DNA of 64,000 bases from Christensenellales bacterium (GTDB taxonomy: Bacteria > Bacillota > Clostridia > Christensenellales > CAG-138). The position numbers and the translations under genes were made by a program. The stretch's first letter is position 1. The number at the start of each line of letters is the position of its first letter. Below are positions 33,055 through 53,788 of the stretch, piece after piece. The notes beneath the pieces are model-generated. The model had not been told where the DNA came from. It did no database searches and saw only the letters and a program-made list of their open reading frames with translations. The stretch spans positions 1,240,285-1,304,284 of the forward strand of contig JAXGNN010000001.1 of assembly GCA_040767925.1 (NCBI GenBank), given 5' to 3'.

Positions 33055-33627
33055 ATGAACATGAACAGGGCAAGGCCCGCGGCGGGGGCGCAAAAGGCGC
33101 TTGCCGTCCCGGGCGGAAACGCGGGCGCGGAAGCCATCCGCGCGGAATACGAGAACAGCCCGGAGTACAGGCTGGGCTGCGAGATCATCGATGAGCTCAC
33201 CGAGGCGCTCGGCATCGGCGCGGACGAGGTCGCCGCGATGCTCAGCGCGAAAACGCGCCCCCCGGGCTTCGACATGCTCGGGATGCAGGCGGCAAGCGCG
33301 CTCGAGGCGATGGAGAAGAACGGCCAGCTTTCGCGCGGCGTCGAGGAATACCTCTCTGACGCGAACTTCGTCAAACTCCTCAGGGAAGTGCCCGCGCAGG
33401 TGGCCGTGCGCCTTTCCGACGCGGAAGCCTCGACCAAAAAGGCGAACGAGCGCGTGGGCGCGGAGCGAAGCGCCGGCATCCAGGAGGTGCTCGAGAAACT
33501 CCGGGCGCGCCGCTCCCTCCCCGCGCAGACGCGCGCGGGCGCGACCGCTTCTGCCAAGCCGGATTTCTCCAACATGAGCACGGAGGAGTTCAACGCGTTT
33601 AAGCGCCGCTTCTTCGGCCACCGCTGA
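33055..33627 (+). CDS. Putative capsid scaffolding protein
   Basis: Helical, charged protein directly upstream of the capsid gene; C-terminal PDFSNMSTEEFNAF is typical of scaffolds; AAGGAG RBS. Confidence 0.6.
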   Translation: MNMNRARPAAGAQKALAVPGGNAGAEAIRAEYENSPEYRLGCEIIDELTEALGIGADEVAAMLSAKTRPPGFDMLGMQAASALEAMEKNGQLSRGVEEYLSDANFVKLLREVPAQVAVRLSDAEASTKKANERVGAERSAGIQEVLEKLRARRSLPAQTRAGATASAKPDFSNMSTEEFNAFKRRFFGHR

Positions 33628-33696
33628 AAACCGCGCGGGCGCCGCGGCGAGCAAGCAACGCAACAGCCAATAAGAAAAGCAAGAAAGGGAAAAAAC

Positions 33697-34902
33697 ATGA
33701 GCAACATCAACACGGTCCAAAACACCGCGTCCACGACGCATCTCGGCAAGGACTACTACGACCGCGCGATCCTCGAGGGCGCCCGGACGCGCTTCGTCCA
33801 CGCCAAATACGGCCAGAAGCGCAGCATCCCCCTCAACAACGGCAAGCGGGTGGAGTTTCGCAGGTGGAACCTGTTCGACGTCAACGAGGACATGTGCAAG
33901 CTCGAGGAGGGCGTAACGCCCGCCGGGCAGAGCCTCTCGCAGAGCAGCGTCGAGGCCGAGGTGGAGCAGTACGGCGCGTACGTCGAGCTCTCCGACCTTC
34001 TGGAAGACACGGCCTACGACCAGGTTTCCTCCGACAGCGCGGAACTTCTGGGCGAGCAGCTCGGCACGGTCGTCGAGTGGGTGACGCGCGACGCCATGTG
34101 CGGCGGCAACAACGTGCAGCGCGCGGGCGGCAAGGCTTCGCGCGCGCTCATCGCGGCGGCGGACACCCTCACGACCACGGAGGTGCGCAAAGCCGTGCGC
34201 ACGCTCAAGAAAGCCAAGGCACGCCCGTTCGCCGGCGAGGGGAACCGCAGGCCGCATTTCATCTGCATCTGCTCCCCCGACGCCACCTACGATTTGCAGA
34301 ACGACACGCTCTGGCAGGACGTTTCCAAATACTCCGGCTCGGAGCAGATCTATTCCGGCGAGATCGGCCGCATATTCGGCGTGGTGTTCGTGGAATCCAC
34401 GGAGTCGAAGGTCATCCGCCAGGCGGTGCACACGCAGGTCGCGAGCCACAGCGCGGGCAGCGCCAACGTCGTGGTGGACGAGATTACGGACGCCGCGTTC
34501 GCCTTCCTCTCCCGCGCGGGCGCGAAGGTCACCATCGGCGCGACGGAATACACGGCTTCCTCCGTCGATCAGGGGACGAAGACCATCGCGCTCTCCGCCC
34601 CCGTCGGCTCCGCCATCGCCGCGGACACCTATGTGTACAGCACAGAAGCGGGCGCCGTCAACGCGACGGACAAGACCGCCGCCGACGTGCACTTCTCCCT
34701 CGTGTTCGGCAAGGACGCCTACGGCGTCGTCGACCTCGAGGGGCGCGGCGCGATGCAGAGCATCGTCAAGCCCCGCGGCTCCGCCGGCGCGGACGACCCG
34801 CTCGATCAGCGCTCCACCGTGGGCGCGAAGGTGCCCGCCTACGCGGCCATCATACTCAACGACCTGTGGCTCGTGCGAATCGAGCACGGCGCGAGCGCGT
34901 AA
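33697..34902 (+). CDS. N4-gp56 family major capsid protein
   Basis: YYDRAIL, KYGQKRSIPLNNGKRVEFRR, LEEGVTPAG, QYGAYVELSD, GEIGRIFGVVFVES, FGKDAYG, GSAGADDPLDQRSTVGAK, WLVRIE. Confidence 0.9.
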   Translation: MSNINTVQNTASTTHLGKDYYDRAILEGARTRFVHAKYGQKRSIPLNNGKRVEFRRWNLFDVNEDMCKLEEGVTPAGQSLSQSSVEAEVEQYGAYVELSDLLEDTAYDQVSSDSAELLGEQLGTVVEWVTRDAMCGGNNVQRAGGKASRALIAAADTLTTTEVRKAVRTLKKAKARPFAGEGNRRPHFICICSPDATYDLQNDTLWQDVSKYSGSEQIYSGEIGRIFGVVFVESTESKVIRQAVHTQVASHSAGSANVVVDEITDAAFAFLSRAGAKVTIGATEYTASSVDQGTKTIALSAPVGSAIAADTYVYSTEAGAVNATDKTAADVHFSLVFGKDAYGVVDLEGRGAMQSIVKPRGSAGADDPLDQRSTVGAKVPAYAAIILNDLWLVRIEHGASA

Positions 34903-34931
34903 AATCGATTTTTCGCCACATCCCTTCGTTT

Positions 34932-34961
34932 GCGGGAGGCGGGCATTTGCCCGCCTCCCGC
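34932..34961. other. Perfect GC-rich hairpin after the capsid gene (no U tail)
   Basis: GCGGGAGGCGGGC-attt-GCCCGCCTCCCGC. Confidence 0.6.
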
Positions 34962-35034
34962 GCCCTTCGGCGCGAAGCACCCGGAACCGTCCCCGCGAAT
35001 GCAACGGAAACATAATAGAAAGGAAACGCCATAC

Positions 35035-36750
35035 ATGAAAAACCTGATTTACCACAGCGCGCCCAAGGGCGTACGGACGAGGGAGGAATTGAAGGAGCTC
35101 CAGAAGAACATCGGCGTCGCGCCCGACGGCGTGTGGAGCGCCGCCTCGGAAGCGGCCTACGAAAAGTACCTCGAGAGGTTCAGGGAGCCGATGACCGCCG
35201 CCTATCAGGTGGAAGGCTATTACGCGCCCGGCATGGTGCGCAACCAGAAGGACGTGAAGATGATGCAGGAGCTCCTCGGCAACGTGGCCGTCGACGGCGT
35301 CTGGGGCCCGGAGACCGACTCCGCCTACTGGCAGCGCATCGCGCTCGAGGAGGCGCGGGACAGCGGGAGCGTGCCGGAGGTATCCGCAACGCTCGCTTCC
35401 AGAATCTCAGCGGCGATAGCAAACACCAAGCCCGTGCCGGAAAACGGCATGCTTTTTCCGGCAAAGGCCGCAAGCGGATTGTCTGGAAGCAGATCGTCTG
35501 GATATACCGACAAGCCCCCCATGACTCAATCTTCACCTAACTCCGGGACAGGGCTTGCAGGAAGGATTGCGCAGGGAACAATGCCCAACAACGTTGATAT
35601 GGGCGCGGTTTCGGGCGCGAGCAACAACAAACCTGCAAGTGAAGAGAGCCTGCCGTTTTTCGCCACTCTTGACGCCGTCGATCAATATTACAACCCGCAA
35701 ATCGATGATCTATTAAAGAAGTATCTTTCCCTAAGAGCCGATGCGGGCCTTCGCGGCAAGCCTAAAGGTATCGGGGAGACGGACGACATCAGAGAAGCTT
35801 TACTCGACTATGAGCAGCTCATGGAACAACGTGATATGGCATATACCGGGGTTAAAAACCGCCAGAGAGAGGAGGCTCCTTATAACCCACGCCACAAGCC
35901 GCAGAAAAAGCGCAGCCGTTCTACGGGTGCGAATGAGCCAACGCTGACGGAACAGTTTCTTGAGTCCGAAACGCCGCCGCAAGATTTCATTGATTACATT
36001 TTTGAGTATGCTGATGACAACTACAGGCTTAAGAAAGACTTGATTGATGAATTCTACAACGTTTTCATTCCAACATATGCAGAAGTTTTAAAGGAGAAGA
36101 CGAATTATGTTTTGCCCGAATGGAATCCTTATCCCTATAAAAAACGAGCCATAGTCGTGGTGGACAAGAATAATGATCCTTGGGAGGTGCTAACTTTTAA
36201 TAATCCCGACTATGACGAAATTCTCGATGTGTATTTAGCTATAGAAAATGGGGAAACGCCGAAATTTACATCCTTCGAGTCAGCGACATATCGGCCGCAT
36301 TTTCACAGAACACCAGCTAAGCAATATGGCGAGTTTTCGTATAGTCCATATTTCCTAACAGCATCTGGATATTGTTTCAGTGTATACATGAATGGAGAAT
36401 ATACAAAGACTGCATATGTGGGTAATGAAATACCTTATGACGTTCAAATCGATGTAGATAAGAGAAAAATCTCAACATATCTTGAAGATATTGAAAAAAA
36501 CTATCTTTTCGAAGTGTTGCCTCAAGCGGTGCTTTCTTTTACAACAAATGCAGCGCTTGAGTATGCCGGCATGAGCGAGTATGATGTCGAGCGTTTTAAC
36601 AATGTCATGGAACTATATGAAATGTCGCAGCCTGAGCCAGCTTTTCCAGAGATACAATACAAAGCCGAGTACGAAATATACGTGTCAGTTAAAGTATACA
36701 ATAGTCGGCATCCTAACGGCAAGTGGGTGGAAGGGTTTGGCATAGAATAA
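35035..36750 (+). CDS. Putative polymorphic toxin/effector: two N-terminal PG-binding-like DGVW repeats, S/G/P linker, AT-rich unknown C-terminal domain
   Basis: Start MKNLIYH after GAAAGGA; repeats ..LQKNIGVAPDGVWS..AAY and ..MQELLGNVAVDGVWGPETDSAY; GC drops after about 35400. Confidence 0.65.
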   Translation: MKNLIYHSAPKGVRTREELKELQKNIGVAPDGVWSAASEAAYEKYLERFREPMTAAYQVEGYYAPGMVRNQKDVKMMQELLGNVAVDGVWGPETDSAYWQRIALEEARDSGSVPEVSATLASRISAAIANTKPVPENGMLFPAKAASGLSGSRSSGYTDKPPMTQSSPNSGTGLAGRIAQGTMPNNVDMGAVSGASNNKPASEESLPFFATLDAVDQYYNPQIDDLLKKYLSLRADAGLRGKPKGIGETDDIREALLDYEQLMEQRDMAYTGVKNRQREEAPYNPRHKPQKKRSRSTGANEPTLTEQFLESETPPQDFIDYIFEYADDNYRLKKDLIDEFYNVFIPTYAEVLKEKTNYVLPEWNPYPYKKRAIVVVDKNNDPWEVLTFNNPDYDEILDVYLAIENGETPKFTSFESATYRPHFHRTPAKQYGEFSYSPYFLTASGYCFSVYMNGEYTKTAYVGNEIPYDVQIDVDKRKISTYLEDIEKNYLFEVLPQAVLSFTTNAALEYAGMSEYDVERFNNVMELYEMSQPEPAFPEIQYKAEYEIYVSVKVYNSRHPNGKWVEGFGIE

Positions 36751-36752
36751 AA

Positions 36753-37346
36753 TCAATTCGGATATGTAAAAGCCCTCGTATACCCATGAGAAAGGCGCGA
36801 ATATATAACCGTGCGCACCTGAAGGCCAGTTTTATTTGTTACATCGCCAAACGACAGCCGGTTAAGATATCTATAATCCAGAAAAAAGACACTGAAGGAG
36901 TCTTCCGTCCATGTGAATGGTTCCAACTCATAGACACTATGTTCACGTTCATCCTTCGATGCATATTTGAAAAAAGCGCTGTAGAGATACTCGTTTATTG
37001 CAATTAGCCTCGTAGGCTCACTATATACGCTTACCGTTTCATCTATGCGGATTGCGTAAACTATGCCATCCCGCTCACGGCTGTAAACACGAAAGCAAAT
37101 ATCCTCATCGCCTATTACCGGCACGATACGGCACACAATGCCGTTACTGATACAAAATGAATTGTCGGTGATAGTATCATCCAGTTCAATGCCATCGGGA
37201 GAATTCCCCGCATTGAAACGCTCGATAAACTCGGAAGAATTCTTTATACCGGGCAGTACCTGGTCAAAGTATGTGGAGAGCAGCAACCACATAAGTCCCA
37301 GAATTATTGTTGCGCCAGCAATCCACCAAAAGAGCTTTTTGCGCAT
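36753..37346 (-). CDS. Membrane-anchored AT-rich protein, candidate immunity for the 35035 effector
   Basis: MRKKLFWWIAGATIILGLMWLLL N-terminal TM after GGGGGA; its stop is 2 nt from the effector stop; similarly low GC. Confidence 0.6.
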   Translation of the reverse strand: MRKKLFWWIAGATIILGLMWLLLSTYFDQVLPGIKNSSEFIERFNAGNSPDGIELDDTITDNSFCISNGIVCRIVPVIGDEDICFRVYSRERDGIVYAIRIDETVSVYSEPTRLIAINEYLYSAFFKYASKDEREHSVYELEPFTWTEDSFSVFFLDYRYLNRLSFGDVTNKTGLQVRTVIYSRLSHGYTRAFTYPN

Positions 37347-37601
37347 ATCTTCATCCCCCTGTGAGCAAAGGATATATGCGCTGCCGAAAAATGTCAACGG
37401 GAAGGATCTCGCGAACCCCTTTCCTCTGAACTGCATCTCGGAACTCGATCGCGCAATAAGCCGAAAGACAACTGAGATGCAGTTCATTTTGCTGATATCT
37501 ATTATATACATGTAGGCAAGCAGAAGGCCGATGCGCGCTTGCCCCTCCGTTGACAAATTAGTTGGGACAACAGTATACTCATGGCAACACCACGCCCAAA
37601 C

Positions 37602-37995
37602 CCCAACTCCATCAGGAAACGATCCTCCTGGCATTGATGAGGCCCATGGCGAGCGCAACAAACCGGCCGACCGTGCGCCCGGAACCACAGCCGTACTTTG
37701 GCAAAGGAAACCGCAGCCCCCGAAAAGACGCCGATCCAGGCCGATTACGAGGCGCTGAAGCGCTTTTCCTACCGGGACATCAGCGACAAGCCCTCCGTCT
37801 ACGAGGAACCCGGCACGGGAAGGACGAGGCCGCCGAAGGAAGGAGATACGTCGAAAGGCAGCGACGGCCGGTCTGATTTCTCTACCAATAAGGACGCTGT
37901 GATTGTATACGCGAGCAACCTGCTCAATCTGACGACCGCGAGAGAGAACAAAGAGGCGTGCTGTAACCTGTACTCGGTGATGGTCGATGGGAAAA
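37602..37995 (+). repeat. About 400-bp direct repeat, copy 1 (5' flank of toxin cassette)
   Basis: Near-identical to 39285-39677 (cccaactccatcaggaaacg...gggaaaag). Confidence 0.92.
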
Positions 37996-38522
37996 GATAT
38001 TACTTTACTGGTGAGGTTTTTATAGGCGAATATGGCAACGTGGTTACTCCATATTTAGCCGATTCATTATGGGAACGGTTGTATGTTTACCTAGTGGGGC
38101 TGTCCTATTTCAATCCAGTTAAATACGAAGGATTTATGCACTCACATCCATACTCTAGCAGTTCTGAAAGTTTTTCTAATCCGGACAGCGTTGTTGCATT
38201 TCTTTCGGGCGATATTTACCTTACAACACAAAGCGGTCGGATTAAAAAATTAACCGCAAAAGAGGCATGGGATAGCAAGTTCTCGAACCCGCCATCCAAA
38301 TCCTATAATGGCCTTTCCAGTATTGACACTACCTATGTGAGGAATATAAACGAAGGCTATATTCCAAATGACAATGATGTTATCGTAGCTCAAGTAAAAC
38401 AACGATACGATGAGGAACTTTCTTCTTTTCTGGAACTGCTTTTACAGGGTATGATTGAGGCTTCAGAAGATAGATATGAAAAACTTAGTGAAGAAGGTAA
38501 AAGATATGATTACAACAAATAA
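37602..38522 (+). pseudogene. Orphan toxin C-terminal cassette 1, DUF4329/JAB-like, with a +1 frameshift near 37703
   Basis: NKEACCNLY...EGFMHSHPY...FSNPD...IYLTTQSG. It reads ggcaaagg where copy 2 reads ggcaagg, which splits ORFs 37562 and 37698. No convincing RBS or start. Confidence 0.65.
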
Positions 38523-39234
38523 AGCACCAAAACACAGTAAGATCATTTTTTTATGTATCCTTCTCGCCTTGTTGTTCTCAGGTTGTATGATTGATGCCGA
38601 TGATAGGCTAACGTCAATGATGTTAATCAAGCCTCCCGATAAGATCATTTATTCCGTCGGACAGGATGATAAAATTGACGTTGGGGGCGCGGTTGTGCGA
38701 ACGCATCAGGATGTCATAAATCCTGAGGGCTTTTATCTTGAAAGAATCCTTTCTCATTTTGAGCAGAGCTATATACATACCAATACAGATTTTCAAAAAG
38801 CGGGCGTATATACGGTATTCGTCGCCCATAAGCGGTGGTTTTTCTTCTGGAAGGTTTATTTTCAATACACCATACAGGTCGTTTCTTTGGAAACCTATAG
38901 CCCTCAACCGGCAACGGAATTAGACTTTTATGCAAGAGATGCCGAATCAACCAAGTGTATAAATACCAGCGCCTATATGCTTGTTCCTCCACTCAACATC
39001 ATTTACCCTGTTGGTTATACAGGCGAAATCGACCTGTCGGGCATAGTAGTAAAACCGGCAAAAGGCTTATTCCCGAAGGAATATAACATCACAGATCTCG
39101 ACTACACGCTCGAGAGCGACGTGGACTTCAACACGCCGGGGAATTACATTGTGAAGGTGTTTTTCACGGACGACAGGGGGCGGGATTTATGGTTCTGCTT
39201 CACCGTGGCGGTCGCGGAGCCGGTGGAGAGGTAA
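38506..39234 (+). CDS. Lipoprotein with two bacterial Ig-like domains, candidate immunity protein 1
   Basis: Lipobox LLFSGC; KPPDKIIYSVG...TDFQKAGVYTVFV and PPLNIIYPVG...VDFNTPGNYIVKV repeats; overlaps the toxin stop. Confidence 0.7.
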   Translation: MITTNKAPKHSKIIFLCILLALLFSGCMIDADDRLTSMMLIKPPDKIIYSVGQDDKIDVGGAVVRTHQDVINPEGFYLERILSHFEQSYIHTNTDFQKAGVYTVFVAHKRWFFFWKVYFQYTIQVVSLETYSPQPATELDFYARDAESTKCINTSAYMLVPPLNIIYPVGYTGEIDLSGIVVKPAKGLFPKEYNITDLDYTLESDVDFNTPGNYIVKVFFTDDRGRDLWFCFTVAVAEPVER

Positions 39235-39236
39235 GC
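39082..39236 (+). repeat. About 155-bp direct repeat, copy 1 (3' flank of cassette)
   Basis: Near-identical to 40935-41089. Confidence 0.92.
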
Positions 39237-39284
39237 GTGGATGGATGTAGATACGGCAGCCTTGGGAAACCGGGGCTGCCGAAT

Positions 39285-39677
39285 CCCAACTCCATCAGGA
39301 AACGATCCTCCCGGCATTGATGCGCCCCATGGCGGGCGCATCAAACCGGCCGACCGTGCGCCCGGAGGCGCAGCCGTACTTTGGCAAGGAAACCGCAGCC
39401 CTCGAAAAGACGCCGATCCAGGCCGATTACGAGGCGCTCAAGCGCTTTTCCTACCGGGATATCAGCGACAGGCCCTCCGTCTACGAGGAACCCGGCACGG
39501 GAAGGACGAGGCCGCCGAAGGAAGGAGATACGTCGAAAGGCAGCGACGGCCGGCCTGATTTCTCTACCAATAAGGACGCTGTGATTGTATATGCCAGCAA
39601 CCTGCTCAACCTGACGACCGCGAGAGAAAACAAAGAGGCGTGCTGTAATCTGTACTCGGTGATGATCGACGGGAAAA
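39285..39677 (+). repeat. About 400-bp direct repeat, copy 2
   Basis: Matches 37602-37995. Confidence 0.92.
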
Positions 39678-40363
39678 GGCACTATTTCACTGGCGAAATC
39701 TTCGTAGGCGAGTTGGACAATGTGATCGTACCATATCTATCGGATGCTTTATGGGAATGGGAAAATACTTTTCTTAATGGACTTCTCGATTCCAAACGGA
39801 TTACCTATGAAGGGTTTATGCACTCGCATCCATATGATAATGTTTCCGATACGTACTCGGGAGGAATCGGAGATACCGCTGTTGCGATGCTTTCCGGTAA
39901 TATCTATCTCACAACACCTAAGGGGCATATCTACGACTTGGTACGGCCGGAAGAGATTATAAATGAATTGCTTAGAGCCAAGGGCGGGATTATGAGTTCT
40001 GCATTAACGCAAGCCCCGGCGAACGCCAAAGATGTCAAGGATTATCAGGACGCCCTGATCGCTTTAAAAGGATGGTTTAAGAATCCGCCGGAAGTGCCGT
40101 ATAACAACCTTCACAGCGTTGATACTACTGGTATTAGCATCTATAATCAAGTATATGATCGCAACATGCCTAAGGTTATCATAAATCTAGTCCAGCGTTA
40201 CTGGGAAAAAGAACATGGGCCCCTCGGCTTTGACTTATATGAAGCATATAAAAACCCAGGTTACCTTTTTGATGAACTCCGGCAGCAGCTCGGCCTTTTT
40301 GCAGAAGAAGCGGAACGGCAATACTACGAAAACGGAGGATCTCTAGATTATGGCAGCAAATAA
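39317..40363 (+). CDS. Orphan toxin C-terminal cassette 2, DUF4329/JAB-like
   Basis: Same conserved leader as cassette 1, then EGFMHSHPY...YSGGIGD...IYLTTPKG. The frame stays open upstream to a stop at 39248, with no clear RBS. Confidence 0.65.
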   Translation: MMRPMAGASNRPTVRPEAQPYFGKETAALEKTPIQADYEALKRFSYRDISDRPSVYEEPGTGRTRPPKEGDTSKGSDGRPDFSTNKDAVIVYASNLLNLTTARENKEACCNLYSVMIDGKRHYFTGEIFVGELDNVIVPYLSDALWEWENTFLNGLLDSKRITYEGFMHSHPYDNVSDTYSGGIGDTAVAMLSGNIYLTTPKGHIYDLVRPEEIINELLRAKGGIMSSALTQAPANAKDVKDYQDALIALKGWFKNPPEVPYNNLHSVDTTGISIYNQVYDRNMPKVIINLVQRYWEKEHGPLGFDLYEAYKNPGYLFDELRQQLGLFAEEAERQYYENGGSLDYGSK

Positions 40364-41087
40364 GCCTATAGTACGTTTCTTAGTTGTTTTAATAAGCGTT
40401 CTTCTAGCCTTGCTGCTCACAAGCTGCTCCGTACTTCCCGATTATCGTATGCAAGCCTTAATGTTGGTGAAACCTCCCGATAAACTGATTTATGTGATTA
40501 GACAGGATCAGAAACTGAACGCAAGCGGTGGGAGAATTATAGAGTACGCTGATTTTAATGGCGGTCGCCATGTGAAAATCAGCCTAGAATCATATGACTA
40601 TGATGCTTATGACGGGAAGTACTTTCACACAAACGCAAATCTCATTAGAGAGGGGACGTATATAGTCTCAATCGCCAAAAGGCATCTGTTTTTCTTCTGG
40701 AAGCGTTACTTCCAATTTACGATTCAGGTTGTTTCCCCAGGAAAATACAATGTCGATTCCTGTGTTCCCGAAGATGACTTCACATACGAGGAACTCGAGC
40801 CGACATATTGTGAAAACGCCACCGCCTACATGCTTACTCCTCCCTCAAACATTATTTATCCGGTAGGACATGAAGGTGCAATCGACCTTTCTGGTCTCGT
40901 AGTAAAGCCGGTAGAGGGAATGTTCGTGGAACCTTATAACATCACAGATCTCGACTACACGCTCGAAGGCGACGTGGACTTCAACACGCCCGGGAATTAC
41001 ATTGTGAAGGTGTTTTTCACGGACGACAGGGGGCGGGATTTATGGTTCTGCTTCACCGTGGCGGTAGCGGAGCCGGTGGAGGAGTAA
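40350..41087 (+). CDS. Lipoprotein with two bacterial Ig-like domains, candidate immunity protein 2
   Basis: Lipobox LLLTSC; paralog of 38506 with a divergent N-half and near-identical C-terminus; overlaps the toxin stop. Confidence 0.7.
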   Translation: MAANKPIVRFLVVLISVLLALLLTSCSVLPDYRMQALMLVKPPDKLIYVIRQDQKLNASGGRIIEYADFNGGRHVKISLESYDYDAYDGKYFHTNANLIREGTYIVSIAKRHLFFFWKRYFQFTIQVVSPGKYNVDSCVPEDDFTYEELEPTYCENATAYMLTPPSNIIYPVGHEGAIDLSGLVVKPVEGMFVEPYNITDLDYTLEGDVDFNTPGNYIVKVFFTDDRGRDLWFCFTVAVAEPVEE

Positions 41088-41089
41088 GT
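40935..41089 (+). repeat. About 155-bp direct repeat, copy 2
   Basis: Matches 39082-39236. Confidence 0.92.
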
Positions 41090-41143
41090 GCCTTATCCAT
41101 TCCTAAGGCAACCGCCCAAAATAGAATACGCGATCCGGTAAGG

Positions 41144-41167
41144 ACGGCTCCGCAGGGGGCCGTTTTT
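41144..41167 (+). terminator. Intrinsic terminator after the toxin/immunity array
   Basis: ACGGCTCC-gcag-GGGGCCGT followed by TTTT. Confidence 0.6.
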
Positions 41168-41243
41168 ATATGCCCGCATCCGCCGGCCCCGACACGGGCG
41201 GAAACGGCAAAAAAACGGGGAAACCCGAAACGAGGAGGATTCC

Positions 41244-41525
41244 ATGGATTATCTCAACGAGAACGAGATCGACAAGATCTCCGGGGACACGGGACGCGCG
41301 CTCGCCGCGCAGAGGAAGGTGAGCATCGTTATCGCACAATCGCCCGACGGCGCGCCGTGGGAGGGCTGCCTCAACGGCTACTTCTTCCGCATCCGGCGCG
41401 GGGTGCCCGTGGAGGTGCCGGAGGCCATCGCGGAATTGATCGGCGAGAACGCGCGCGTCACGGAGCTTGCCAAAGCCGCGATCCGCGAATACAGGGCCGG
41501 GCGCGGCAAAAAGCTCTCGGCGTAA
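41244..41525 (+). CDS. Phage-type hypothetical protein
   Basis: GAGGAGG RBS; LNGYFFRIRRGVPVEVPEAIAELI motif recalls small genes found after N4-gp56-type capsids. Confidence 0.65.
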   Translation: MDYLNENEIDKISGDTGRALAAQRKVSIVIAQSPDGAPWEGCLNGYFFRIRRGVPVEVPEAIAELIGENARVTELAKAAIREYRAGRGKKLSA

Positions 41526-41537
41526 GGAGGGATTGGA

Positions 41538-42083
41538 ATGACGCTCAACGACATCATCGTCTCCGCCCTCGCGCAGCTCGACCGCGGACACGACGCGCAG
41601 ACGCTCGACGTGTGGCGCGACAAGCTCACGCGCTTCGCCAACGACGCTTTGATCGACCTCGCATCCGCGGCGCAGCCGCGAAGAACCGAAACCGCAACGA
41701 TCGCGGGCGGGCGGCTCGACATCGGTGCGCTCGATCGGCCTTGCCTCAAGGTGCTTTTTGTCAGAAAAGACGGAAAAGCCCTCCCCTTCCGCCGCGGGGA
41801 GAACCCGGGCGAGCTCTTTGTCGAAAACGCGGCGGACGGCGAAATTAAAATCACCTACGCCTTCGCGCCGAGGGAGCTTTCCGCCGCGACCGACGTTCCG
41901 GAACTGCCCCTCCCCTGCCACGCGCTGATCGTGACCTACGTCGTGGGGCGCGAGCGCGCCTCGGGCGACGTCTCCGTGCAGCGCGGCGGCAACGTCTACT
42001 TCCAGATGTACGAGGCCGGAAAGCACATGCTTCGCCCCGGCCTCGGCAGCCCCGACGAATACAAAATCGTCAACAGGTGGTGA
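41538..42083 (+). CDS. Putative head-tail adaptor protein
   Basis: MTLNDII start, ITY..P.EL...TD.PELP..CH.LIV.Y pattern of podoviral adaptors; gene position. Confidence 0.6.
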   Translation: MTLNDIIVSALAQLDRGHDAQTLDVWRDKLTRFANDALIDLASAAQPRRTETATIAGGRLDIGALDRPCLKVLFVRKDGKALPFRRGENPGELFVENAADGEIKITYAFAPRELSAATDVPELPLPCHALIVTYVVGRERASGDVSVQRGGNVYFQMYEAGKHMLRPGLGSPDEYKIVNRW

Positions 42084-42088
42084 GGGCG

Positions 42089-43513
42089 ATGTCGGTGAAG
42101 ATTTTCAGGATCGACGAGTTCTACGGCATCGACCAGTCCCGCGACGAGAACGCGATCCCCTTCTCCATGCGCCCCGACGCCTGCAACATGGACACGGAAA
42201 ACGGCGCGCTCGCCGTCGCGAAAGGCTATGCGCGTCACATCCCCGCGCCCGTCCCCGGGGAGGGAGAAATCCACGCGCTGTGCGTCTACGCGAGAAGCGC
42301 GGGCGACATGTTCGTATGCGCCGCGGGCGAGAGCCTCTGCGCGTGGGACGGCGAAAGCTGGCGGGAGGTCTATACCTACGAAGGCGGCCTCGCCCTGCAC
42401 CGCTTCGACTTCGAGCAGGCGCAGATCGGCGGCACGGACTACCTCGTCGTCGGTTGCGGGGAGAGGCGGCTCGTCAAGTTCGACGGGACCTCGGCGACGC
42501 TTTTCGGCAGCAGCGAGGAGGCGAGCGACATCCACGCGCTGTACCTTTCGATGTACCGGGGAAGGCTCTTCGCGGCGGGCGACCCCGATAACCCCAACCG
42601 GCTCTATTGGAGCCAGCTTCCCGGCAGCGGAAGGAGCATCGAATCCTGGGGGCCGGTCGAGGCTTCCCCCAACGTGGAGGGCGGGCACGCGGAAGTGGGC
42701 AGCATCGCGAGCGATCCCATATTGGGCCTCGCCGCGCTCTCCAACCAGCTCGTCATCTTCAAGAAGCACAGCATCTACCGGCTCCTCGGCGACAGGCCCG
42801 GCAACTTCACCATCGAGGAGGTCGATTCCCGCGCCGAGCGCACGGCGAACACGGCCGTGGTCAAATGCGGGGACGCGCTCTATTTCATGACGGCGGGCGG
42901 CATGTGTTGCTTCAACGGCGTGACAGCCGAACCCATGCGGGACGCGCGGCGCATCCGGAACATCCTCGCGGCGGCGGACGTTTCCCGCTCGATGGGCGCG
43001 CTGTGCCGCGACAGGCTATATTTTTCGCTTGAGGACGCGCAGGGCGGCGCGCTCGTGGAATACGACCTCGTGCGCGGGACCTACATGCTGCGGCGCGGCT
43101 TTCACGTACGGGGCCTCGCCGCGCGGGATGGGAAACTCTACCTCGTCGACGCCGCGCGGCACGTCTGCCGCTTCAACGAGGGGGGCACCTACGACGGCGC
43201 GCCGATTTCCGCCTGGTGGCGTACGCCGGAAAGCGACCTTCGCGAGAAAAGCGCCGTCAAGGGAATGCGCGCGCTGTACCTGCGCGGCAATTCCGACGCG
43301 CGCGCGTCCGCGACGCTCGTGGACGTCAAAACGGGCAACATCACGGAAACGCACAGGCTGCTTCTGCCCGAGGGCGGGAGCGCGGTGCTCGAGGTGCCCC
43401 TGAAGAACGAGGGGCGCACGTTCAGCCTTCGCTTCTACAACGAAGCGGGCGGGCATTTTTCCATCAACTCGGGCGCCGAAATCGAATTCGAACAGAAAAG
43501 GAGGACCATCTGA
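42089..43513 (+). CDS. Putative short-tail nozzle/stabilisation protein (beta-propeller-like)
   Basis: F.GID start, C.NMD...GAL, YRGRLF.AG...NRLYWS, LVIFK..SIY motifs, as in P22 gp10/T7 gp12-like proteins. Confidence 0.6.
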   Translation: MSVKIFRIDEFYGIDQSRDENAIPFSMRPDACNMDTENGALAVAKGYARHIPAPVPGEGEIHALCVYARSAGDMFVCAAGESLCAWDGESWREVYTYEGGLALHRFDFEQAQIGGTDYLVVGCGERRLVKFDGTSATLFGSSEEASDIHALYLSMYRGRLFAAGDPDNPNRLYWSQLPGSGRSIESWGPVEASPNVEGGHAEVGSIASDPILGLAALSNQLVIFKKHSIYRLLGDRPGNFTIEEVDSRAERTANTAVVKCGDALYFMTAGGMCCFNGVTAEPMRDARRIRNILAAADVSRSMGALCRDRLYFSLEDAQGGALVEYDLVRGTYMLRRGFHVRGLAARDGKLYLVDAARHVCRFNEGGTYDGAPISAWWRTPESDLREKSAVKGMRALYLRGNSDARASATLVDVKTGNITETHRLLLPEGGSAVLEVPLKNEGRTFSLRFYNEAGGHFSINSGAEIEFEQKRRTI

Positions 43514-43707
43514 TGGCGCTTGACATGCGCGCGCTCTATTACATCGCGCTCGCCGCGCTCGCCGCGGATGCGAACGGCGGGCAGGAATACGAGAAAAACC
43601 GGGCGATCGAAAACTGCCTCAATCAGAACTTCACGATCATGGCGCAGAAGATCGCCGAGCTGGAGGCGCGCCTCAGTTCGGTTGAAAACGCGCTGGGCTC
43701 CCTGTGA
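43513..43707 (+). CDS. Small coiled-coil virion-associated protein
   Basis: TGATG coupling to the upstream gene, GGAGG RBS; LNQNF...KIAELEARL. Confidence 0.55.
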   Translation: MALDMRALYYIALAALAADANGGQEYEKNRAIENCLNQNFTIMAQKIAELEARLSSVENALGSL

Positions 43708-43722
43708 GCGAAAGGAGGAACT

Positions 43723-44619
43723 ATGGCAAGCTATTCTCTCAAAGGTTACGCGACGCCTTCGGGCGTCGACAGCCGCGAGAAGGTCAAGGACTACCAAAGG
43801 ATGCTCGGCGTCACGGCGGACGGCATCTGGGGCCCCGTCACGCAGGCGGCGTACGAGAGGTATAACGCGGGCATATACGGCATGTCCAGCCCGTTCGGCG
43901 CCGCGGGAGACGCGTTCCCGAAATATTACGAGGCCATCCGCGGGATGATCGCCGCGCCGGGCGTTTCGGTGAGCGTCCCCTCCCGCGAGGAGATCGCGCG
44001 GGATTACGCGGAGGCCCTGCGCCCCGGCGTGGACCTCGCGATCCAAACCCGGCGAAGGCGCGGCGAGGAGGCGATGGCCGAGATCGACGCGGACGCGGCC
44101 TCCCGCGGGATGGCGGCCTCCACCTACGTGAGCTCCATGAAGGAGCGCGAGGGGGACGACGTCGAGGGGGACGTGTCCATGATGGAGGCGCAGTATACGG
44201 CGACGCTCGCGGAGCGCATCGCCGCCGCGCTCGAGCATTATTCTTCGCTCGAGTTCGAGGCGGCGCGCACGAACGCGCAGATGGCGCAGAGCGCAGGCAG
44301 CGCCGCGGCGGGCATCGCCATGCAGTGGTACCAGAGCTATCTTAACGGCATGGGCGTCGCGGGCGTCGCGCCCTCGGGCACCTGGGAAGAACCGCGGCTC
44401 TCCCCCGAGGATTATCTCGAATATGTGGCGCTGCTCGGCGCCGCGGGCAGGCGGGAACTGTTCTATTCCCCGTCGGAGGAGTGGGCGAAAAGGCGGGAGG
44501 AGCTCATCGAGGCGCTCGGGCGAGAGCGCTACGAGGCGCTCAAACGCCAGTACGCATACGCGACCGGTTCGGGCGCGACGAGCGCGGGAGGTAGGCTATG
44601 GCAGAACAGCACGAAGTGA
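43723..44619 (+). CDS. Putative internal/ejection virion protein with an N-terminal PG-binding-like DGIWG repeat
   Basis: AAGGAGG RBS; YQRMLGVTADGIWGPVTQAAY; helical body with AASRGM..S motif; sits after the nozzle gene. Confidence 0.55.
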   Translation: MASYSLKGYATPSGVDSREKVKDYQRMLGVTADGIWGPVTQAAYERYNAGIYGMSSPFGAAGDAFPKYYEAIRGMIAAPGVSVSVPSREEIARDYAEALRPGVDLAIQTRRRRGEEAMAEIDADAASRGMAASTYVSSMKEREGDDVEGDVSMMEAQYTATLAERIAAALEHYSSLEFEAARTNAQMAQSAGSAAAGIAMQWYQSYLNGMGVAGVAPSGTWEEPRLSPEDYLEYVALLGAAGRRELFYSPSEEWAKRREELIEALGRERYEALKRQYAYATGSGATSAGGRLWQNSTK

Positions 44620-45725
44620 AGAAGCGCTTTGAAATCGCGCTCGACATCAGCCGCCCCATCTCCAACCGCGCGTTCACGCTCGTCGAGGGGGATACGGGGA
44701 ACGAGCTGATCATCTCCCTCGCCGACGACGGCGAGCCCGTGGACCTCGCGGGCTGCCGCGTGATGGCGCTCTTCTCCAAATCGGACGGGACGACCGTTTC
44801 GCAGGACAGCGGCACCGAACAGAACGGCATAACGCTCGGCGGGGACGCGGGCAACGTGATTTCGATCGATCTTTTCGCCTCCTCTTTCGCGCCCGGCATG
44901 GTGGAGTGCGAGATACAGATCTACTCGGGCGCGGCGCTCGCGACCCTCGTCACAAGCGCGAAGTTCAACTTCCGCTGCCGCAGGAGCATACTCAACGCGG
45001 ACACCATCGCGGCCGTGCCCGAATACCCGCTGTTGACCTCGCTGCTCGCGGACACGATAGCGCTCTCGGCCCAAACCGCCCTGGCGCTGAACGAGGCGCA
45101 GGCGGCCATCGATGCCGCCGGGACGGGCGAGGCCGCGCGGAACGCCGCGGAAGCCGCCCGCGCCGGCGCCGAAGACGCGAGAGGCGCGGCGGAAACGGCG
45201 CGCATCGGCGCGGAAACGGCGCGCGCGGGGGCGGAAATCGCACGCGCGTCGGCCGAGCTTGCGCGCGCGCAAGGCTATCTCGCGCTCGAGAACCGGCTCG
45301 ACGCAGCCATCGGCGACGCGGACGGGCTCGTGGCGGAGCTGGAAGCGGCCGTGGAGACCCTCCCCGAGATCGCGGAAATCTCCGGCATACTCATGGGGGA
45401 CGGCGCGGGCAACGTGCGCGCCGCCGCGGCGAACGCGGATTACTACGAGCCGCCGCTTCGCGCGCATGATCTCAGCGTCGCGACCGGCGCGTGGGCCGAC
45501 GACGCGACCTACGCGGCCTACCCCAAGCGCGCCGCGGTTTTTGTCGCGGGGGCCGCGGCGGACATGGTGCCGGAGGTGACGTTCGCGCTCGCGGACGCCG
45601 TGTCCGGTCTTTTGGCGCCGGTCGCCGAAACGTACGCGGGCGGCGTATATCTCTACGCCGCGGAAACCCCGGCGGCGGTCGTGACGATCAGGACCCTGAC
45701 CTTCTGGAAGGCGGTGGGCGCATGA
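44598..45725 (+). CDS. BppU-like baseplate/fibre protein with coiled-coil repeats
   Basis: EGDTGNEL.I.L.DDGEPVDL.G......FSKSDGT N-domain; AETAR heptads. Confidence 0.7.
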   Translation: MAEQHEVKKRFEIALDISRPISNRAFTLVEGDTGNELIISLADDGEPVDLAGCRVMALFSKSDGTTVSQDSGTEQNGITLGGDAGNVISIDLFASSFAPGMVECEIQIYSGAALATLVTSAKFNFRCRRSILNADTIAAVPEYPLLTSLLADTIALSAQTALALNEAQAAIDAAGTGEAARNAAEAARAGAEDARGAAETARIGAETARAGAEIARASAELARAQGYLALENRLDAAIGDADGLVAELEAAVETLPEIAEISGILMGDGAGNVRAAAANADYYEPPLRAHDLSVATGAWADDATYAAYPKRAAVFVAGAAADMVPEVTFALADAVSGLLAPVAETYAGGVYLYAAETPAAVVTIRTLTFWKAVGA

Positions 45726-46558
45726 TCGGCAGGACGAACGCGACTTCGGGCGGCTCCTCCCTGGTAAAGGGGGGAGCCGTCCTCGCCTCCCACAGCGCGG
45801 GCGCTCCCGGCATGACCGACCGCGGCGTCGTGACGCTCGGCGACGGGAAGCAGTACCGCCTGCTGGAAATCAAGCAGAGCGGGACGCTGAGCTTCAACGC
45901 CGCGCAGCTTAAAAAAGGCATCCGCGCGGATGTCTGCGTCGTAAGCGGCGGGCAGGGCGGCGGACGCGGCGGAGCGAATCACGGCGGCTACGGCGGAAGG
46001 ATGCTCAATCTGTACGGGCTGCTTCTGGACGATTTGAGCGTGGTGATCGGAGCCGGGGGCGCGGGCGCCGCTTCCAGCAATTATGGATCGCTGGGAGGTC
46101 AGTCCACGCTCAGGCGCGCTTCCGACGCGGGCGCCATGGGGCCGATCCCCGGCGTCGGCACAGGCGGCGGCCGGGGAGGCTACTCTTCATCGCAGGGCGC
46201 GTATCAATTTGGCGACGCAATCGGCAAAAAGCCTTTCGACGACGCGTCCTATTTCAGCCCGCATTGCGGCGGCGGAGGCGGCGGCGCGTACAGCCCCGGA
46301 GGCGGCGGCAACTACACGGGCGGCGCGGGCGGGACGAACGGCGGAGACGGCGCGCATCGCATCTCCGTGGGTTCCCCGCAGGGGCAGCCTGGGCCGGCGG
46401 GCGACGCAAGCGCCGGCGCGGGCGGGGCCTACAACGCCGCCGGAGCGGCCGCCTCTTACTATGGCGGCGGCGGAGGCGGCGGCGGATCGAACGGCACCAC
46501 GGACCGGAACGGCGGCAACGGCTATCAGGGCGTCGTCTGGGTCCGGATTCCGGCGTAA
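45722..46558 (+). CDS. Glycine-rich tail-fibre/receptor-binding protein
   Basis: MIGRTNA start coupled to the upstream stop; DVCVVSGGQGGG, VVIGAGGAG, GGGGGG, GYQGVVWVR Gly-rich domain. Confidence 0.7.
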   Translation: MIGRTNATSGGSSLVKGGAVLASHSAGAPGMTDRGVVTLGDGKQYRLLEIKQSGTLSFNAAQLKKGIRADVCVVSGGQGGGRGGANHGGYGGRMLNLYGLLLDDLSVVIGAGGAGAASSNYGSLGGQSTLRRASDAGAMGPIPGVGTGGGRGGYSSSQGAYQFGDAIGKKPFDDASYFSPHCGGGGGGAYSPGGGGNYTGGAGGTNGGDGAHRISVGSPQGQPGPAGDASAGAGGAYNAAGAAASYYGGGGGGGGSNGTTDRNGGNGYQGVVWVRIPA

Positions 46559-46567
46559 GGAGGGAAT

Positions 46568-46801
46568 ATGAAAGCGGCGGTTATCAAAGAAAGTGCGGTC
46601 ACGAACATCATCGTCGCAAAGGAGGAGGTGTACGCCGAGTTGGAAACGGCGCTCGGCGCGCGCCTCGTTTGCGTGGACGGGACGGAGTGCGGCATCGGCT
46701 GGACGACGGAGGACGGCGGGGCGAGCTTCACCGCCCCCGCGTCGGAGCCGGAGGCCGATTATGAACAGATCATCGACATATTGACCGGGGAGGTGGAGTA
46801 G
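46568..46801 (+). CDS. Small tail-fibre-associated phage protein
   Basis: AAGGAGG RBS; A.I....VTNIIV...GIGW.....F..P pattern. Confidence 0.6.
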   Translation: MKAAVIKESAVTNIIVAKEEVYAELETALGARLVCVDGTECGIGWTTEDGGASFTAPASEPEADYEQIIDILTGEVE

Positions 46802-47041
46802 ATGCCCATCCGCACGACCGACGCGGCGCGCGCGTGGCGCGCGGAGCAGCAGCGGGCGTTCGCGGCGCTTCGCGCGCTGCTCGCGCTGCCCGCCTGGGCG
46901 GAGCTCGATTCGGGCGCCGCGATCCCCCTCGGCATGAAGGCGCGCTTTCGCCTGAAAACCTACGAATGCGTGAGCGCGCACGCGAAGGCGCTCGCGAGGT
47001 CCCCGCTCAACGCGGAATTCTGGAAGGAGGTTGCCGAATGA
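46802..47041 (+). CDS. Small phage protein (chitin-binding-like C-terminus)
   Basis: GGAGGTGG RBS; YECVSAH......P.....W motif. Confidence 0.5.
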   Translation: MPIRTTDAARAWRAEQQRAFAALRALLALPAWAELDSGAAIPLGMKARFRLKTYECVSAHAKALARSPLNAEFWKEVAE

Positions 47042-47820
47042 GCAGAACATCGGATTTCATCGCCTGGCTCACGGCGCGGCGGGGCGCGGCCTACGTGTGG
47101 GGCGCGCAGGGGCAGGAGGCGCGTCCCGACGGGAGCGTTATCCTCGACGGGAAGCGCGTTTCCGCCTCGTGGGAAAGCTGGGTGGACGCCCGCGAGAACA
47201 GCGGCGAGAACGCGAGGCGCGCGAAGGAGTATATCAGAAAGCGGCTTGAAGCGGGGGACGGCAACGTCCCCTGCTTCGACTGCAGCGGCCTTCTCATGCG
47301 CTACCTCAAGGACGTCAAGGGCTATTTCCCCGAAGACAAAAGCGCGGCGGGGCTCCTCGCCGCGTGCAAAGAGATCGCAAGGGGCGCGCTCACGCCCGGG
47401 CATCTCCTGTTTCGCCACAACGGCAAAAAGGCGCATCACGTGGGCGTCTACCTCGGGGACGGCCTGGCGATCGAGGCGCAGGGAAGGAGCGCGGGCGTCG
47501 TGATCCGCCCGCTCGACGCGTCCGGCGCAAACTACTGGAACCGCTTCGGCGCGCTCCCCTGCCTCGCTGAAGACGGCGCAAAAGCCGCCCCGAGGCAGAC
47601 CCGCTTCGCCGTATGCGCGGGGGGAAGCGTCAACGTGCGCAAAGCTCCCGGCACGGAACACGCGGCGTTGGCGGTCGCGCACAAGGGCGATCCCATGCTC
47701 TTCCTCCCTTCGGCGGAGAAGGACTGGGGGCAGGTCGCAATTTTCCATGCGGGAGGGCTTGTCACAGGTTACATGCATGTGAAATATATTGATTGTATAG
47801 AGGGAGGCATTGAACAATGA
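47038..47820 (+). CDS. Endolysin: NlpC/P60 peptidase plus SH3b domain
   Basis: YVWGAQG, FDCSGL, HVGVYLGDG, then VNVRKAPGT...W......GYM...YI. Confidence 0.85.
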   Translation: MSRTSDFIAWLTARRGAAYVWGAQGQEARPDGSVILDGKRVSASWESWVDARENSGENARRAKEYIRKRLEAGDGNVPCFDCSGLLMRYLKDVKGYFPEDKSAAGLLAACKEIARGALTPGHLLFRHNGKKAHHVGVYLGDGLAIEAQGRSAGVVIRPLDASGANYWNRFGALPCLAEDGAKAAPRQTRFAVCAGGSVNVRKAPGTEHAALAVAHKGDPMLFLPSAEKDWGQVAIFHAGGLVTGYMHVKYIDCIEGGIEQ

Positions 47821-48293: not shown

Positions 48294-48307
48294 GCCGACA
48301 CCGCCTC

Positions 48308-48347
48308 AAAACCCGCGCCGTGATCCTTGTCCGGCGCGGGTTTTTCG
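48308..48347 (+). terminator. Terminator closing the particle operon
   Basis: AAAACCCGCGCCG...CGGCGCGGGTTTTT. Confidence 0.75.
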
Positions 48348-48387
48348 TTTATAATGATATATCCAAGGGATTACGCGCGGAGGGAAC

Positions 48388-52007: not shown

Positions 52008-52166
52008 ACGTCGTTCTTCTCCTTGATAATTCACACTTTGTTCGTGATTATTCAGTATATCCCAATCGCCCGCGCCTTGTCAACGCGCGCCGGCGCGGGT
52101 ATAATGAGCCATGATATCCCCACGCCATTGGATCGTCGAGCGATATTCAGCGAAGGCGAAGAACGA

Positions 52167-53787: not shown

Positions 53788-53788
53788 C

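Follow-up and report, generated by a model that had tools for sequence, protein, structure and literature searches.

A peptidoglycan-binding-type half-module common to a polymorphic-toxin-type effector and a conserved particle protein in a gene-transfer-agent-like cluster of a Christensenellales bacterium

We analysed a stretch of 64,000 nucleotides from a Christensenellales bacterium (the window; all positions are those of the window unless a locus is named). The gene at 35035-36750 on the plus strand encodes a 571-residue protein of polymorphic-toxin type (the effector). It lies among phage-type particle genes at 33055-56747 which, by their content and order, look like a chromosomally fixed, domesticated gene transfer agent (GTA) of podovirus type. 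The effector begins with two copies of a module of about 50 residues, and a third copy forms the N-terminus of a conserved 298-residue protein encoded further downstream in the same cluster, at 43723-44619 (+) (the 43723 protein). We confirmed that this similarity is real and goes beyond a generic signature. Sequence and profile comparisons indicate that the module is a distinct, almost always N-terminal subfamily of the PG_binding_1/PG_binding_3 half-domain. As to its function, we hold, with about even confidence, that it tags the toxin for docking on peptidoglycan, the toxin itself having no signal peptide and being set free by lysis.

The shared module and the toxin gene

In the effector, the first copy of the module (R1) spans residues 1-50 (35035-35184, +) and the second (R2) residues 54-107 (35194-35355, +), as delimited by BLASTP against the 43723 protein and by the module profile. 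Effector residues 3-45 matched residues 5-47 of the 43723 product with 18 of 43 positions identical (42%, E 1e-9), and residues 55-98 matched residues 2-44 with 20 of 44 positions identical (45%, E 2e-8). A preliminary description of this DNA had proposed that the three sequences align; they do, and the sequences that it quoted agree with the translations. On a first local profile, R1, R2 and the third copy scored 59.4, 67.6 and 96.4 bits, respectively. Within the 2.7-Mb genome that contains the window, the module is confined to these two proteins (third match, E 0.67).

The window also encodes SleB (14835-15530), which has a full PG_binding_1 domain (78.7 bits, profile positions 1-57) and could serve as an internal comparison. 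SleB matched the effector and the 43723 product with E-values of 0.001-0.09 only. On a module profile made from 40 copies, taken from the window and from fetched loci and aligned over 53 positions, it reached 9.6 bits. Chance or generic PG_binding_1 similarity is therefore ruled out by the BLASTP E-values and by the profile scores as compared to SleB, and the shared stretch is indeed, as the preliminary description had it, a specific, extended and N-terminal version of the motif. Recent copying of the effector repeats from the resident 43723 gene is ruled out as well: identity to the counterparts in a related genome, G401, is 57% for R1 and 76% for R2, as compared to 38-40% with the module of the window's own 43723 protein.

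The module has the consensus MAxYxLxGYTxPxGVxSxxxVKxxQxxLGVxADGIWGPxTQAAY. In both window proteins, PF01471 (PG_binding_1) matches the second half only (profile positions 27-56), with 24.4 bits for the 43723 product. At E<0.01, PG_binding_1 was found in 35 of the 40 copies and PG_binding_3 in 16, always through the second half of the domain. The best PDB matches of the module profile, over positions 17-49 only, were 7dnp, the endolysin 7rum, 4lpq, 1lbu and SleB (6tci); they represent wall-binding domains, found in a GH108-type 'secretion activator' protein, an endolysin, an L,D-transpeptidase and SleB. The first 16 or so residues are particular to the subfamily and absent from PG_binding_1. 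In a model of the 43723 family obtained with AlphaFold 2 (AF2), the module is formed by a short N-terminal strand and two helices, and not by the whole three-helix domain of about 57 residues that characterizes PG_binding_1.

The effector open reading frame starts with an ATG at 35035, preceded 8-9 nucleotides upstream by AAAGGA, which resembles a ribosome-binding site. No signal peptide or hydrophobic leader was seen by inspection. Six relatives were found among 5.8 billion proteins. One, P0061, is 94% identical to the effector over the full length. P0062 matches it to about residue 430 and is different beyond, P0061 and P0062 differing from each other only in the last 150 residues or so. P0063 to P0066 and a protein of genome G402 have only the first 150 residues or so in common with the effector and continue with a JAB domain. 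The alternative C-terminal end begins after position 36261 both in P0062 and in another metagenome. Likewise, the toxin of locus L131 and P0067 are 90% identical over residues 1-345 and have different ends. Overall, close relatives keep an N-terminus of about 150 residues and carry unrelated C-terminal ends, as expected of polymorphic toxins. The C-terminal region of the effector itself (CT-B, 35935-36750) has a weak motif in common with P0062, P0068 and the toxins of L131 and L132. Alignment of five relatives gave this weak motif only, with no obvious catalytic residues, and the best score of an Atlas search (0.77) was not informative and pointed to no family. PHROGs gave no match for the effector, the cassettes and immunity candidates described below or the 43723 protein, and NCBIfam no name for the effector, cassette, immunity or particle proteins.

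Two orphan toxin cassettes, both without the N-terminal part of the effector, follow on the plus strand. Using the C-terminal parts of P0063, P0065 and P0066, tblastn gave a match at 37574-38408, inside the first cassette stretch (37574-38522). The open reading frame of this cassette (37698-38522) encodes a linker and a Tox-JAB-2-like domain with the motif E...HSH...S..D, without module. The second cassette (stretch 39287-40363, open reading frame 39317-40363), also Tox-JAB-2-like, is 54% identical to residues 177-524 of P0065. An AF2 model of P0065 had a mean predicted local distance difference test score (pLDDT) of 59, with 73-87 for the modules, less than 50 for the linker (residues 119-275) and about 60-90 for the C-terminal domain. 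In Foldseek, the modelled C-terminal domain matched 5cw4 (E 5e-4), with JAMM proteins making up almost the whole of the first 50 matches; VIA gave 5ld9 (Z 8.4, root-mean-square deviation 3.1 over 120 residues). The Atlas look-alike clusters for the JAB cassette were DUF4329 (0.91) and Toxin-JAB1 (0.89), and the orphan cassettes had no Pfam match to PF14220 or PF15659 at E<0.01. According to the model, the orphan cassettes thus carry the JAMM/JAB (MPN) fold together with the Tox-JAB-2 motif, the residues E, HSH, S and D being those that Zhang et al. 2012 give for Tox-JAB-2 (DUF4329) (PMC3482391; this paper, PMC5576092 and PMC12946183 are cited here from the accessible parts of their text).

Candidate immunity genes accompany the toxin ends. 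The gene at 36753-37346 (minus strand), convergent with the effector gene, encodes a 197-residue protein with an N-terminal hydrophobic helix seen by inspection and is the candidate for the effector's cognate immunity. It has a promoter-like site at 37397-37369 on the minus strand, and its motif SxEFxxxFN recurs in convergent genes located after the CT-B toxins of L131 and L132. On the plus strand, 38455-39234 and 40350-41087 encode paralogous lipoprotein-type candidates. By inspection, the first has a hydrophobic leader and an LFSGC lipobox and the second a leader with the lipobox LTSC at its end. Homologues of the first come after JAB cassettes in G401, G402 and L165. A lipoprotein has been described as the immunity protein of Tox-JAB-1 (PMC3482391).

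Several arrangements show cassettes being exchanged. Two sister genomes, G401 and G402, have the locus as well. The JAB cassette, an orphan in the window, is joined to modules in G402 and comes after a TAG stop in G401. In G402, an intact single gene after the capsid gene encodes the modules and the JAB domain. In G401, the fusion is broken by one in-frame TAG between the linker and the JAB domain (L056, 2364-2366), after which three immunity paralogues follow. In L260, a six-module N-terminus and a toxin end stand in different frames. The TAG of G401 and the frame break of L260 could be pseudogenes, assembly errors or read-through. Recombinant joints were also read from DNA contigs of three other studies, of digester, wastewater and sludge metagenomes. 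One joint gives a recombinant of cassettes 1 and 2 (37687->39371, 17 shared letters) and another the loss of cassette 2 (39281->40348). In addition, the module region runs toward the JAB cassette (35319->39634), the intervening sequence being not known. Because of the conserved N-terminus, the swappable C-termini, the two orphan JAB cassettes, the membrane-anchored immunity candidates and these recombinants, the assignment of 35035-36750 as a polymorphic-toxin-type effector, already made in the preliminary description, is well supported.

Distribution of the module and its possible role

The module profile was searched against 1.84 billion representative proteins. It retrieved 6779 proteins at E<=0.001; the best 150 were examined, of which 147 were new. 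Among these new representatives, 52 contained the full-length module and 95 the generic core only. About 35 of the 52 carry two to six copies. A Pfam scan of 36 of them detected Ntox44 in P0200 (two modules), an amidase in P0081 and a rotamase in P0201, the others matching PG-binding families only. All-against-all BLAST of 35 C-terminal parts of module proteins distinguished at least eight unrelated types. The preliminary description had considered that such a profile might recover nothing but generic peptidoglycan-binding proteins; these results, with Ntox44 among the C-termini, indicate otherwise. Of 401 sampled genomes of the order, 22 had a module match at E<=1e-8, and so did 6 of the 20 other genomes of the window's family.

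From these data we infer a scheme that covers peptidoglycan binding, lysis release, envelope action, immunity and the role of the 43723 protein. Two N-terminal modules of about 50 residues, truncated and extended relatives of PG_binding_1/3, would dock the toxin on peptidoglycan. A linker of about 200 residues, probably disordered, would follow and bear the exchangeable C-terminal toxin. Since no signal peptide is present and the gene is inserted between those of the capsid and of the following head component, the toxin would probably be produced together with the particles and freed when the holin and endolysin of the cluster lyse the producer. The freed toxin would then attach to the wall of Gram-positive neighbours and act at their envelope, kin being shielded by immunity proteins with membrane or lipid anchors, whose genes adjoin each of the toxin cassettes. 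The 43723 protein would hold peptidoglycan through its single module, probably when the particle meets the wall of a recipient. The common module would thus mean a common target and not a common loading route. Docking is favoured because the module belongs to a peptidoglycan-binding superfamily and occurs on wall hydrolases as well as on toxins whose immunity candidates face outward, and because it is dispensable for the 43723 family and not confined to particle clusters. Its combination with lysis release is favoured because a toxin without leader is encoded in an operon that ends with holin and lysin genes. PGB1 and LysM domains of toxins have been noted as likely adhesion domains (PMC3482391).

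Several observations weigh against docking. The PG_binding_1 fold is only half matched, and the effector stays below the Pfam gathering cut-off (17.7 as compared to 23 bits). The first module begins no later than residue 10 in 47 of the 52 full-module representatives. Mere wall binding would not require a place at residue 1, and such a strict position may mean that the free N-terminus takes part in export or loading. Neither Pfam nor Atlas recognized a family or fold in the effector's own C-terminal end, and the putative immunity roles rest on position, paralogy and inspection of the anchor sequences. Finally, five of the nine module toxin loci with readable context adjoin particle genes, at three different positions, which speaks for some functional link with the particle. 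This adjacency may result from co-expression alone, but packaging would account for it too.

Packaging was the idea of the preliminary description, according to which the module recruits the toxin to the virion as MuF or PAAR do in other systems. In this explanation, which we consider possible but unlikely, the module would be an address into a podovirus-like particle for the 43723 protein and for the toxin, the latter being expelled through the tail into the wall compartment of the recipient as a counterpart of MuF toxins. The placement of the toxin genes is its main asset. They follow the capsid gene in G000, G401 and G402 and the portal gene in G282, at the place of MuF genes, and a module protein precedes the scaffold gene in G086; three positions in five genomes are thus represented. 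The position of the module at the extreme N-terminus also suits an address. Besides the 43723 protein, several different post-nozzle proteins start with the module, namely a 339-residue protein in L007 and L008, proteins in L088 and L092 and a DUF7934 protein in L172. For the 554-residue protein of L088, a lytic transglycosylase end had been guessed from sequence; the guess was dropped, as Pfam gave no such match. The long low-confidence linker would suit passage through the portal channel, and immunity that faces outward would also agree with delivery of the toxin into the wall compartment at ejection. In addition, four metagenome-assembled genomes with toxins away from particle genes also hold an element with a module-bearing 43723 homologue (L235, L241, L250 and L089).

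On the other side, the module is not needed for the place of the 43723 family: it is present in 46 of the 84 loci with a 43723 body, whereas the other 38, mostly of Christensenellaceae, have another N-terminus at the same post-nozzle place. The module also heads NlpC/P60 proteins encoded beside gyrB and gyrA (L127, 8865-10289; L130, 6320-8212), a housekeeping neighbourhood. Four of the nine toxin loci with readable context are away from particle genes. The toxin of L131/L258 stands among relaxase, NikA, ArdC and sortase genes, in a conjugative-type neighbourhood; that of L259 stands among purA, purB and nrdD, and that of L260 beside BlaR/BlaI-type, ParB and aconitase genes. The L132 toxin is beside an OAD operon, with the contig end 555 bp away on the other side. 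In G161, a 92% complete genome with two multi-module toxins on short contigs, no capsid match was obtained with the window capsid as single query. The effector had no Pfam match to a MuF domain (PF04233 or PF06152) at E<0.01. Moreover, a small particle like that of FpGTA, the podovirus-like GTA of Faecalibacterium (about 40 nm; PMC12946183), would leave little room for a 571-residue passenger. A complex prediction with portal, scaffold and effector residues 1-110 scored 0.01, which speaks neither for nor against binding. Module-less 43723 loci, gyrase-side NlpC/P60 proteins and toxins without particle genes together speak against MuF- or PAAR-like recruitment. The preliminary description had also offered 'packaging/ejection or cell-wall-docking' as alternatives: the wording of cell-wall docking fits better, and packaging or ejection is not supported. 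Module proteins do recur in the same capsid/adaptor clusters, a co-occurrence for which it had suggested a test.

A wider version, which we regard as distinctly unlikely, would make the module a combined loading and wall-anchoring tag of a domesticated podovirus-like GTA particle. An ejection-type protein and, in some lineages, swappable toxins would be put in the capsid, giving a kin-discriminating, PBSX-like injector whose specificity would change by cassette recombination and lipoprotein immunity. The products of toxin genes located away from the cluster would then be loaded in trans.

The strict N-terminal position in proteins without signal peptide, be they toxins, NlpC/P60 proteins or particle proteins, would also be accounted for if the module, or its first 15 or so residues (MASYYLxGY...), were recognized by a non-classical, for example holin-dependent, export route, wall binding being secondary. 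The N-terminal extension is precisely the part not common with PG_binding_1. However, the contexts read show no conserved export machinery beside the module genes, the AF2 model has the first residues packed against the module as a short strand and not as a free peptide, and internal repeats keep the extension though they could not serve as N-terminal leaders. Export is therefore an improbable explanation. Head fibre or decoration genes directly follow the capsid gene in some phages. That the 35035 protein decorates the head or tail, with modules sticking particles to walls and a variable C-terminus binding receptors, would agree with the place of its gene directly after the capsid gene and with a C-terminal domain without catalytic motif, but it is highly improbable in view of the JAB-fold and Ntox44 toxin domains among the alternative C-termini, the membrane-anchored small protein after each cassette, the orphan cassettes and cassette recombination that are hallmarks of toxin loci, and the 77 of 80 capsid-centred loci without such a gene or island, which show that it is not a standard part of the particle.

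Peptidoglycan docking thus remains our preferred reading. Some of the loci mentioned above have features worth recording in their own right. In the chromosomal proteins of L127 and L130, a long middle region separates the module, at residue 1, from a C-terminal NlpC/P60 domain. Inspection showed no signal peptide in these proteins, and the conserved neighbours of their genes are gyrB, gyrA and the gene of the CCA-adding enzyme. In L165 (G282:C26, 5731-15143), the order is terS, TerL, portal and a 523-residue toxin with an 80-residue unknown N-terminus, one module and a JAB-type end, followed by cassette fragments and three membrane-anchored, Ig-like-looking immunity candidates. L164 (G086:C75, 94-5455, minus strand) encodes a 582-residue module protein with a glycine-rich unknown C-terminus, then two paralogous membrane proteins of about 90 residues. 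These genes stand directly upstream of a second, more distant cluster with scaffold-like, capsid (43-52% identical) and adaptor genes.

The GTA-like gene cluster

The head-tail operon starts on the plus strand with a scaffold-like gene (33055-33627), a GC3-biased open reading frame that has no Pfam or PHROG family match; its homologues stand directly before the capsid gene in 38 loci. The major capsid protein (33697-34902, +) matches phrog_1357 (E 1.1e-62) and Pfam Phage_capsid_3. Capsid relatives were found in 286 species genomes, and the 80 species loci kept span 61-92% identity. In the window, G401 and G402, a 6-kb island that holds the toxin locus separates the capsid gene from the next head gene. 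This small conserved gene (41244-41525, +) normally comes right after the capsid gene, with a gap of less than 0.5 kb in most of the 80 capsid-centred loci. The effector island is present in two of these loci (G401 and G402) and only an immunity gene in one; 77 have neither. In three relatives, the island between the capsid gene and the small gene also encodes a protein of about 548 residues with ABC-type ATPase motifs (L054, 1108-2754; L056, 5756-7399; L058, 3523-5160). Read by eye as ABC-F-like, it would be a host-type gene inside the structural operon, and it is absent from the window.

The small gene is followed by a head-tail adaptor (41538-42083, +; Pfam SU10_adaptor, E 8.7e-7) and by a post-adaptor structural protein (42077-43513, +) that matches phrog_3287, 'virion structural protein' (E 1.3e-15), and phrog_511, 'internal virion protein' (E 2.8e-10). 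The preliminary description had placed the 43723 gene after a nozzle gene. The place is conserved, although the 'nozzle' identity of 42077-43513 rests on position only. The 43723 protein itself consists of the module (residues 1-52, 43723-43878), a long helical hairpin and a helical C-terminal domain. It has 58 homologues of about 300 residues, and the AF2 model of the family (mean pLDDT 83.8) had no fold match in the PDB at E<=0.001. In BFVD, it matched uncharacterised podoviral, 'internal virion' and 'DNA transfer' proteins with E 4e-3 or worse, matches too weak to give the protein a name. Tail and lysis genes complete the operon (44598-48293, +): Pfam detected BppU_N, Gly_rich_2, NLPC_P60 with SH3_3, and Phage_holin_4_1, that is, a BppU_N protein, a Gly-rich protein, an NlpC/P60-SH3 lysin and a holin, which are accompanied by two small open reading frames. 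A second operon (53257-56747, +) encodes a terS-like protein, the large terminase (TerL) and the portal (Terminase_6N, P22/SU10 portal, PHROGs 979 and 156).

Across genomes, the set (terS-)TerL-portal-scaffold-capsid-small gene-adaptor-'nozzle'-43723 is highly conserved. In the lineage of the window it is split, scaffold to holin plus a DnaC-like gene being at 33055-49314 and terS-TerL-portal at 53257-56747. Between the operons are RraB-like, AlaX-like and SBP genes, in the same order in G401. In a rearranged form of the cluster (L214, L215, L219, L227 and L232), the scaffold, capsid, 43723-like, BppU-like, lysin and holin genes come first and the small gene, adaptor and 'nozzle' about 5 kb later. 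An OAD beta gene stands directly before the scaffold gene in G000, G401 and G402 and in at least a dozen more distant genomes (L058, L071, L073, L075-L078, L083, L187, L190, L200, L216 and L235). Between G401 and the window, capsid, portal and TerL are 85-89% identical and the host-type OAD beta, AlaX-like and RraB-like proteins 79-88%. The cluster thus occupies the same chromosomal site with a divergence like that of the flanking host genes, as expected of a GTA-like element. With Pfam and PHROGs, no integrase, repressor or polymerase/replication module was found at 33-57 kb, except for the DnaC-like ATPase. An ordinary integrated prophage with attP between portal and scaffold is unlikely, because the site and order are the same in many species, host-type genes lie inside and no integrase was found; att repeats were not searched for.

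Relation to known systems and genome setting

Polymorphic toxins with orphan cassettes, phage-borne MuF toxins, PGB1 as a possible toxin adhesion domain, Tox-JAB-2 and podovirus-like GTAs are already known. MuF toxins are the closest comparison (PMC5576092, PMC3482391). Like the effector, they combine a conserved N-terminus with variable C-terminal toxins and have no signal peptide; their genes, too, stand in the head and packaging region of a phage-derived element, with immunity genes beside them. The relative in G282 even stands directly after the portal gene, as muf genes do (PMC5576092). In contrast to MuF toxins, the N-terminus here is an array of one to six PG_binding-type half-domains, the window gene follows the capsid and not the portal gene, the immunity candidates face outward and four of the nine loci with readable context are outside particle clusters. 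The portal gene of the window is followed by minus-strand genes for sortase-anchored-type proteins. These genes (57107-58507 and 58520-59737) are paralogues whose C-termini give weak NPXTG/LPXTG sortase-anchor matches; G401 has three such genes at this place, and L087 has one between its DnaC-like and RraB-like genes.

With the PG_binding_1 (PF01471) and PG_binding_3 (PF09374) domains of SleB, endolysins and L,D-transpeptidases, the module has in common the core Q..LGV..DG.WG..T..A and a helix-loop-helix. It differs by the extension (M)AxYxLxGYxxPxGV in place of the first helix and by its position, nearly always at residue 1 and often in tandem. The orphan cassettes have the E, HSH, S, D motif and the JAMM/MPN fold of Tox-JAB-2/DUF4329 (PMC3482391). 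Their candidate immunity proteins, however, are Ig-like-looking lipoproteins and not Imm-NTF2 or Imm65, and outward-facing immunity fits poorly with the nuclease role suggested for toxin JAB domains by Zhang et al. (PMC3482391). Orphans of contact-dependent inhibition (CDI; cdiA-CT/cdiI) and Rhs systems are also downstream pairs of toxin end and immunity gene without the N-terminal part; they too have a conserved pre-toxin stretch and recombine with each other and with the main gene. Their delivery part is another one, whereas the present locus belongs to a Gram-positive host and lies inside a phage-derived operon.

FpGTA is encoded by two operons (PMC12946183), and GTA-like DNA packaging has also been reported for Christensenellaceae in the same paper. 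Like FpGTA and PBSX of Bacillus subtilis, the window cluster is phage-derived, apparently without integration or replication modules and organized as two operons, one for packaging and head and one for tail and lysis. The split is elsewhere than in FpGTA (scaffold to holin versus terS-TerL-portal), and the likeness is one of organisation. The accessible text of the FpGTA paper mentions no toxin locus.

Three points appear to be new. The first is a toxin family without signal peptide that is defined by an N-terminal, multi-copy peptidoglycan-binding half-module at its head. The second is the occurrence of this module both on toxins and on a conserved particle protein, and the third the nesting of such a toxin locus in a GTA-like operon. 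No published description of half-module-headed toxins as a class was found in a literature search that covered material outside subscription journals and supplements, and the 2012 survey, in its accessible part, mentions PGB1 only as a possible adhesion domain (PMC3482391). Polymorphic toxins are classed by their N-terminal delivery part, and the class headed by half-module arrays has so far been found in Clostridia-type metagenome genomes. The toxin locus, lying inside an apparent relative of the podovirus-like GTAs of gut anaerobes, links two topics. With lysis-coupled release, making GTAs would at the same time liberate a bacteriocin against which kin are protected; with loading into particles, GTAs could act as carriers of toxins. 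Both possibilities concern the reasons why bacteria retain GTA-like elements. In practice, the module profile together with the cassette structure offers a route to new envelope-acting toxin/immunity pairs in uncultured Gram-positive anaerobes, and the fixed podovirus-derived cluster may have wider interest than the module sharing itself.

The genome of the window is of the high-GC, spore-forming Clostridia type, and the window holds SpoIIR, SleB/YpeB and ribosomal protein genes. From about 0.62-0.70, the GC content falls to 0.35-0.48 over 36000-41000 and is already low towards the 3′ end of the toxin gene. It spikes at 37601-37800 and 39201-39400, which are the conserved pre-toxin stretches of the two orphan cassettes. 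A strong GC-rich hairpin without T-run (34934-34959) lies directly 3′ of the capsid stop codon and 5′ of the effector gene; it could damp read-through from a highly expressed capsid gene. RNA contigs of metatranscriptome X20 match 35032-35183, 36990-37126, 40672-40822 and a few other short pieces with 98-100% identity. These are at most a weak hint of transcription, because contigs of RNA libraries can derive from DNA. Finally, the plus-strand open reading frame 51153-53084 (SBP_bac_3) overlaps the AlaX-like gene 50220-52034 (minus strand) by about 880 bases. Its true start is probably much later, since the Pfam match begins at residue 412.

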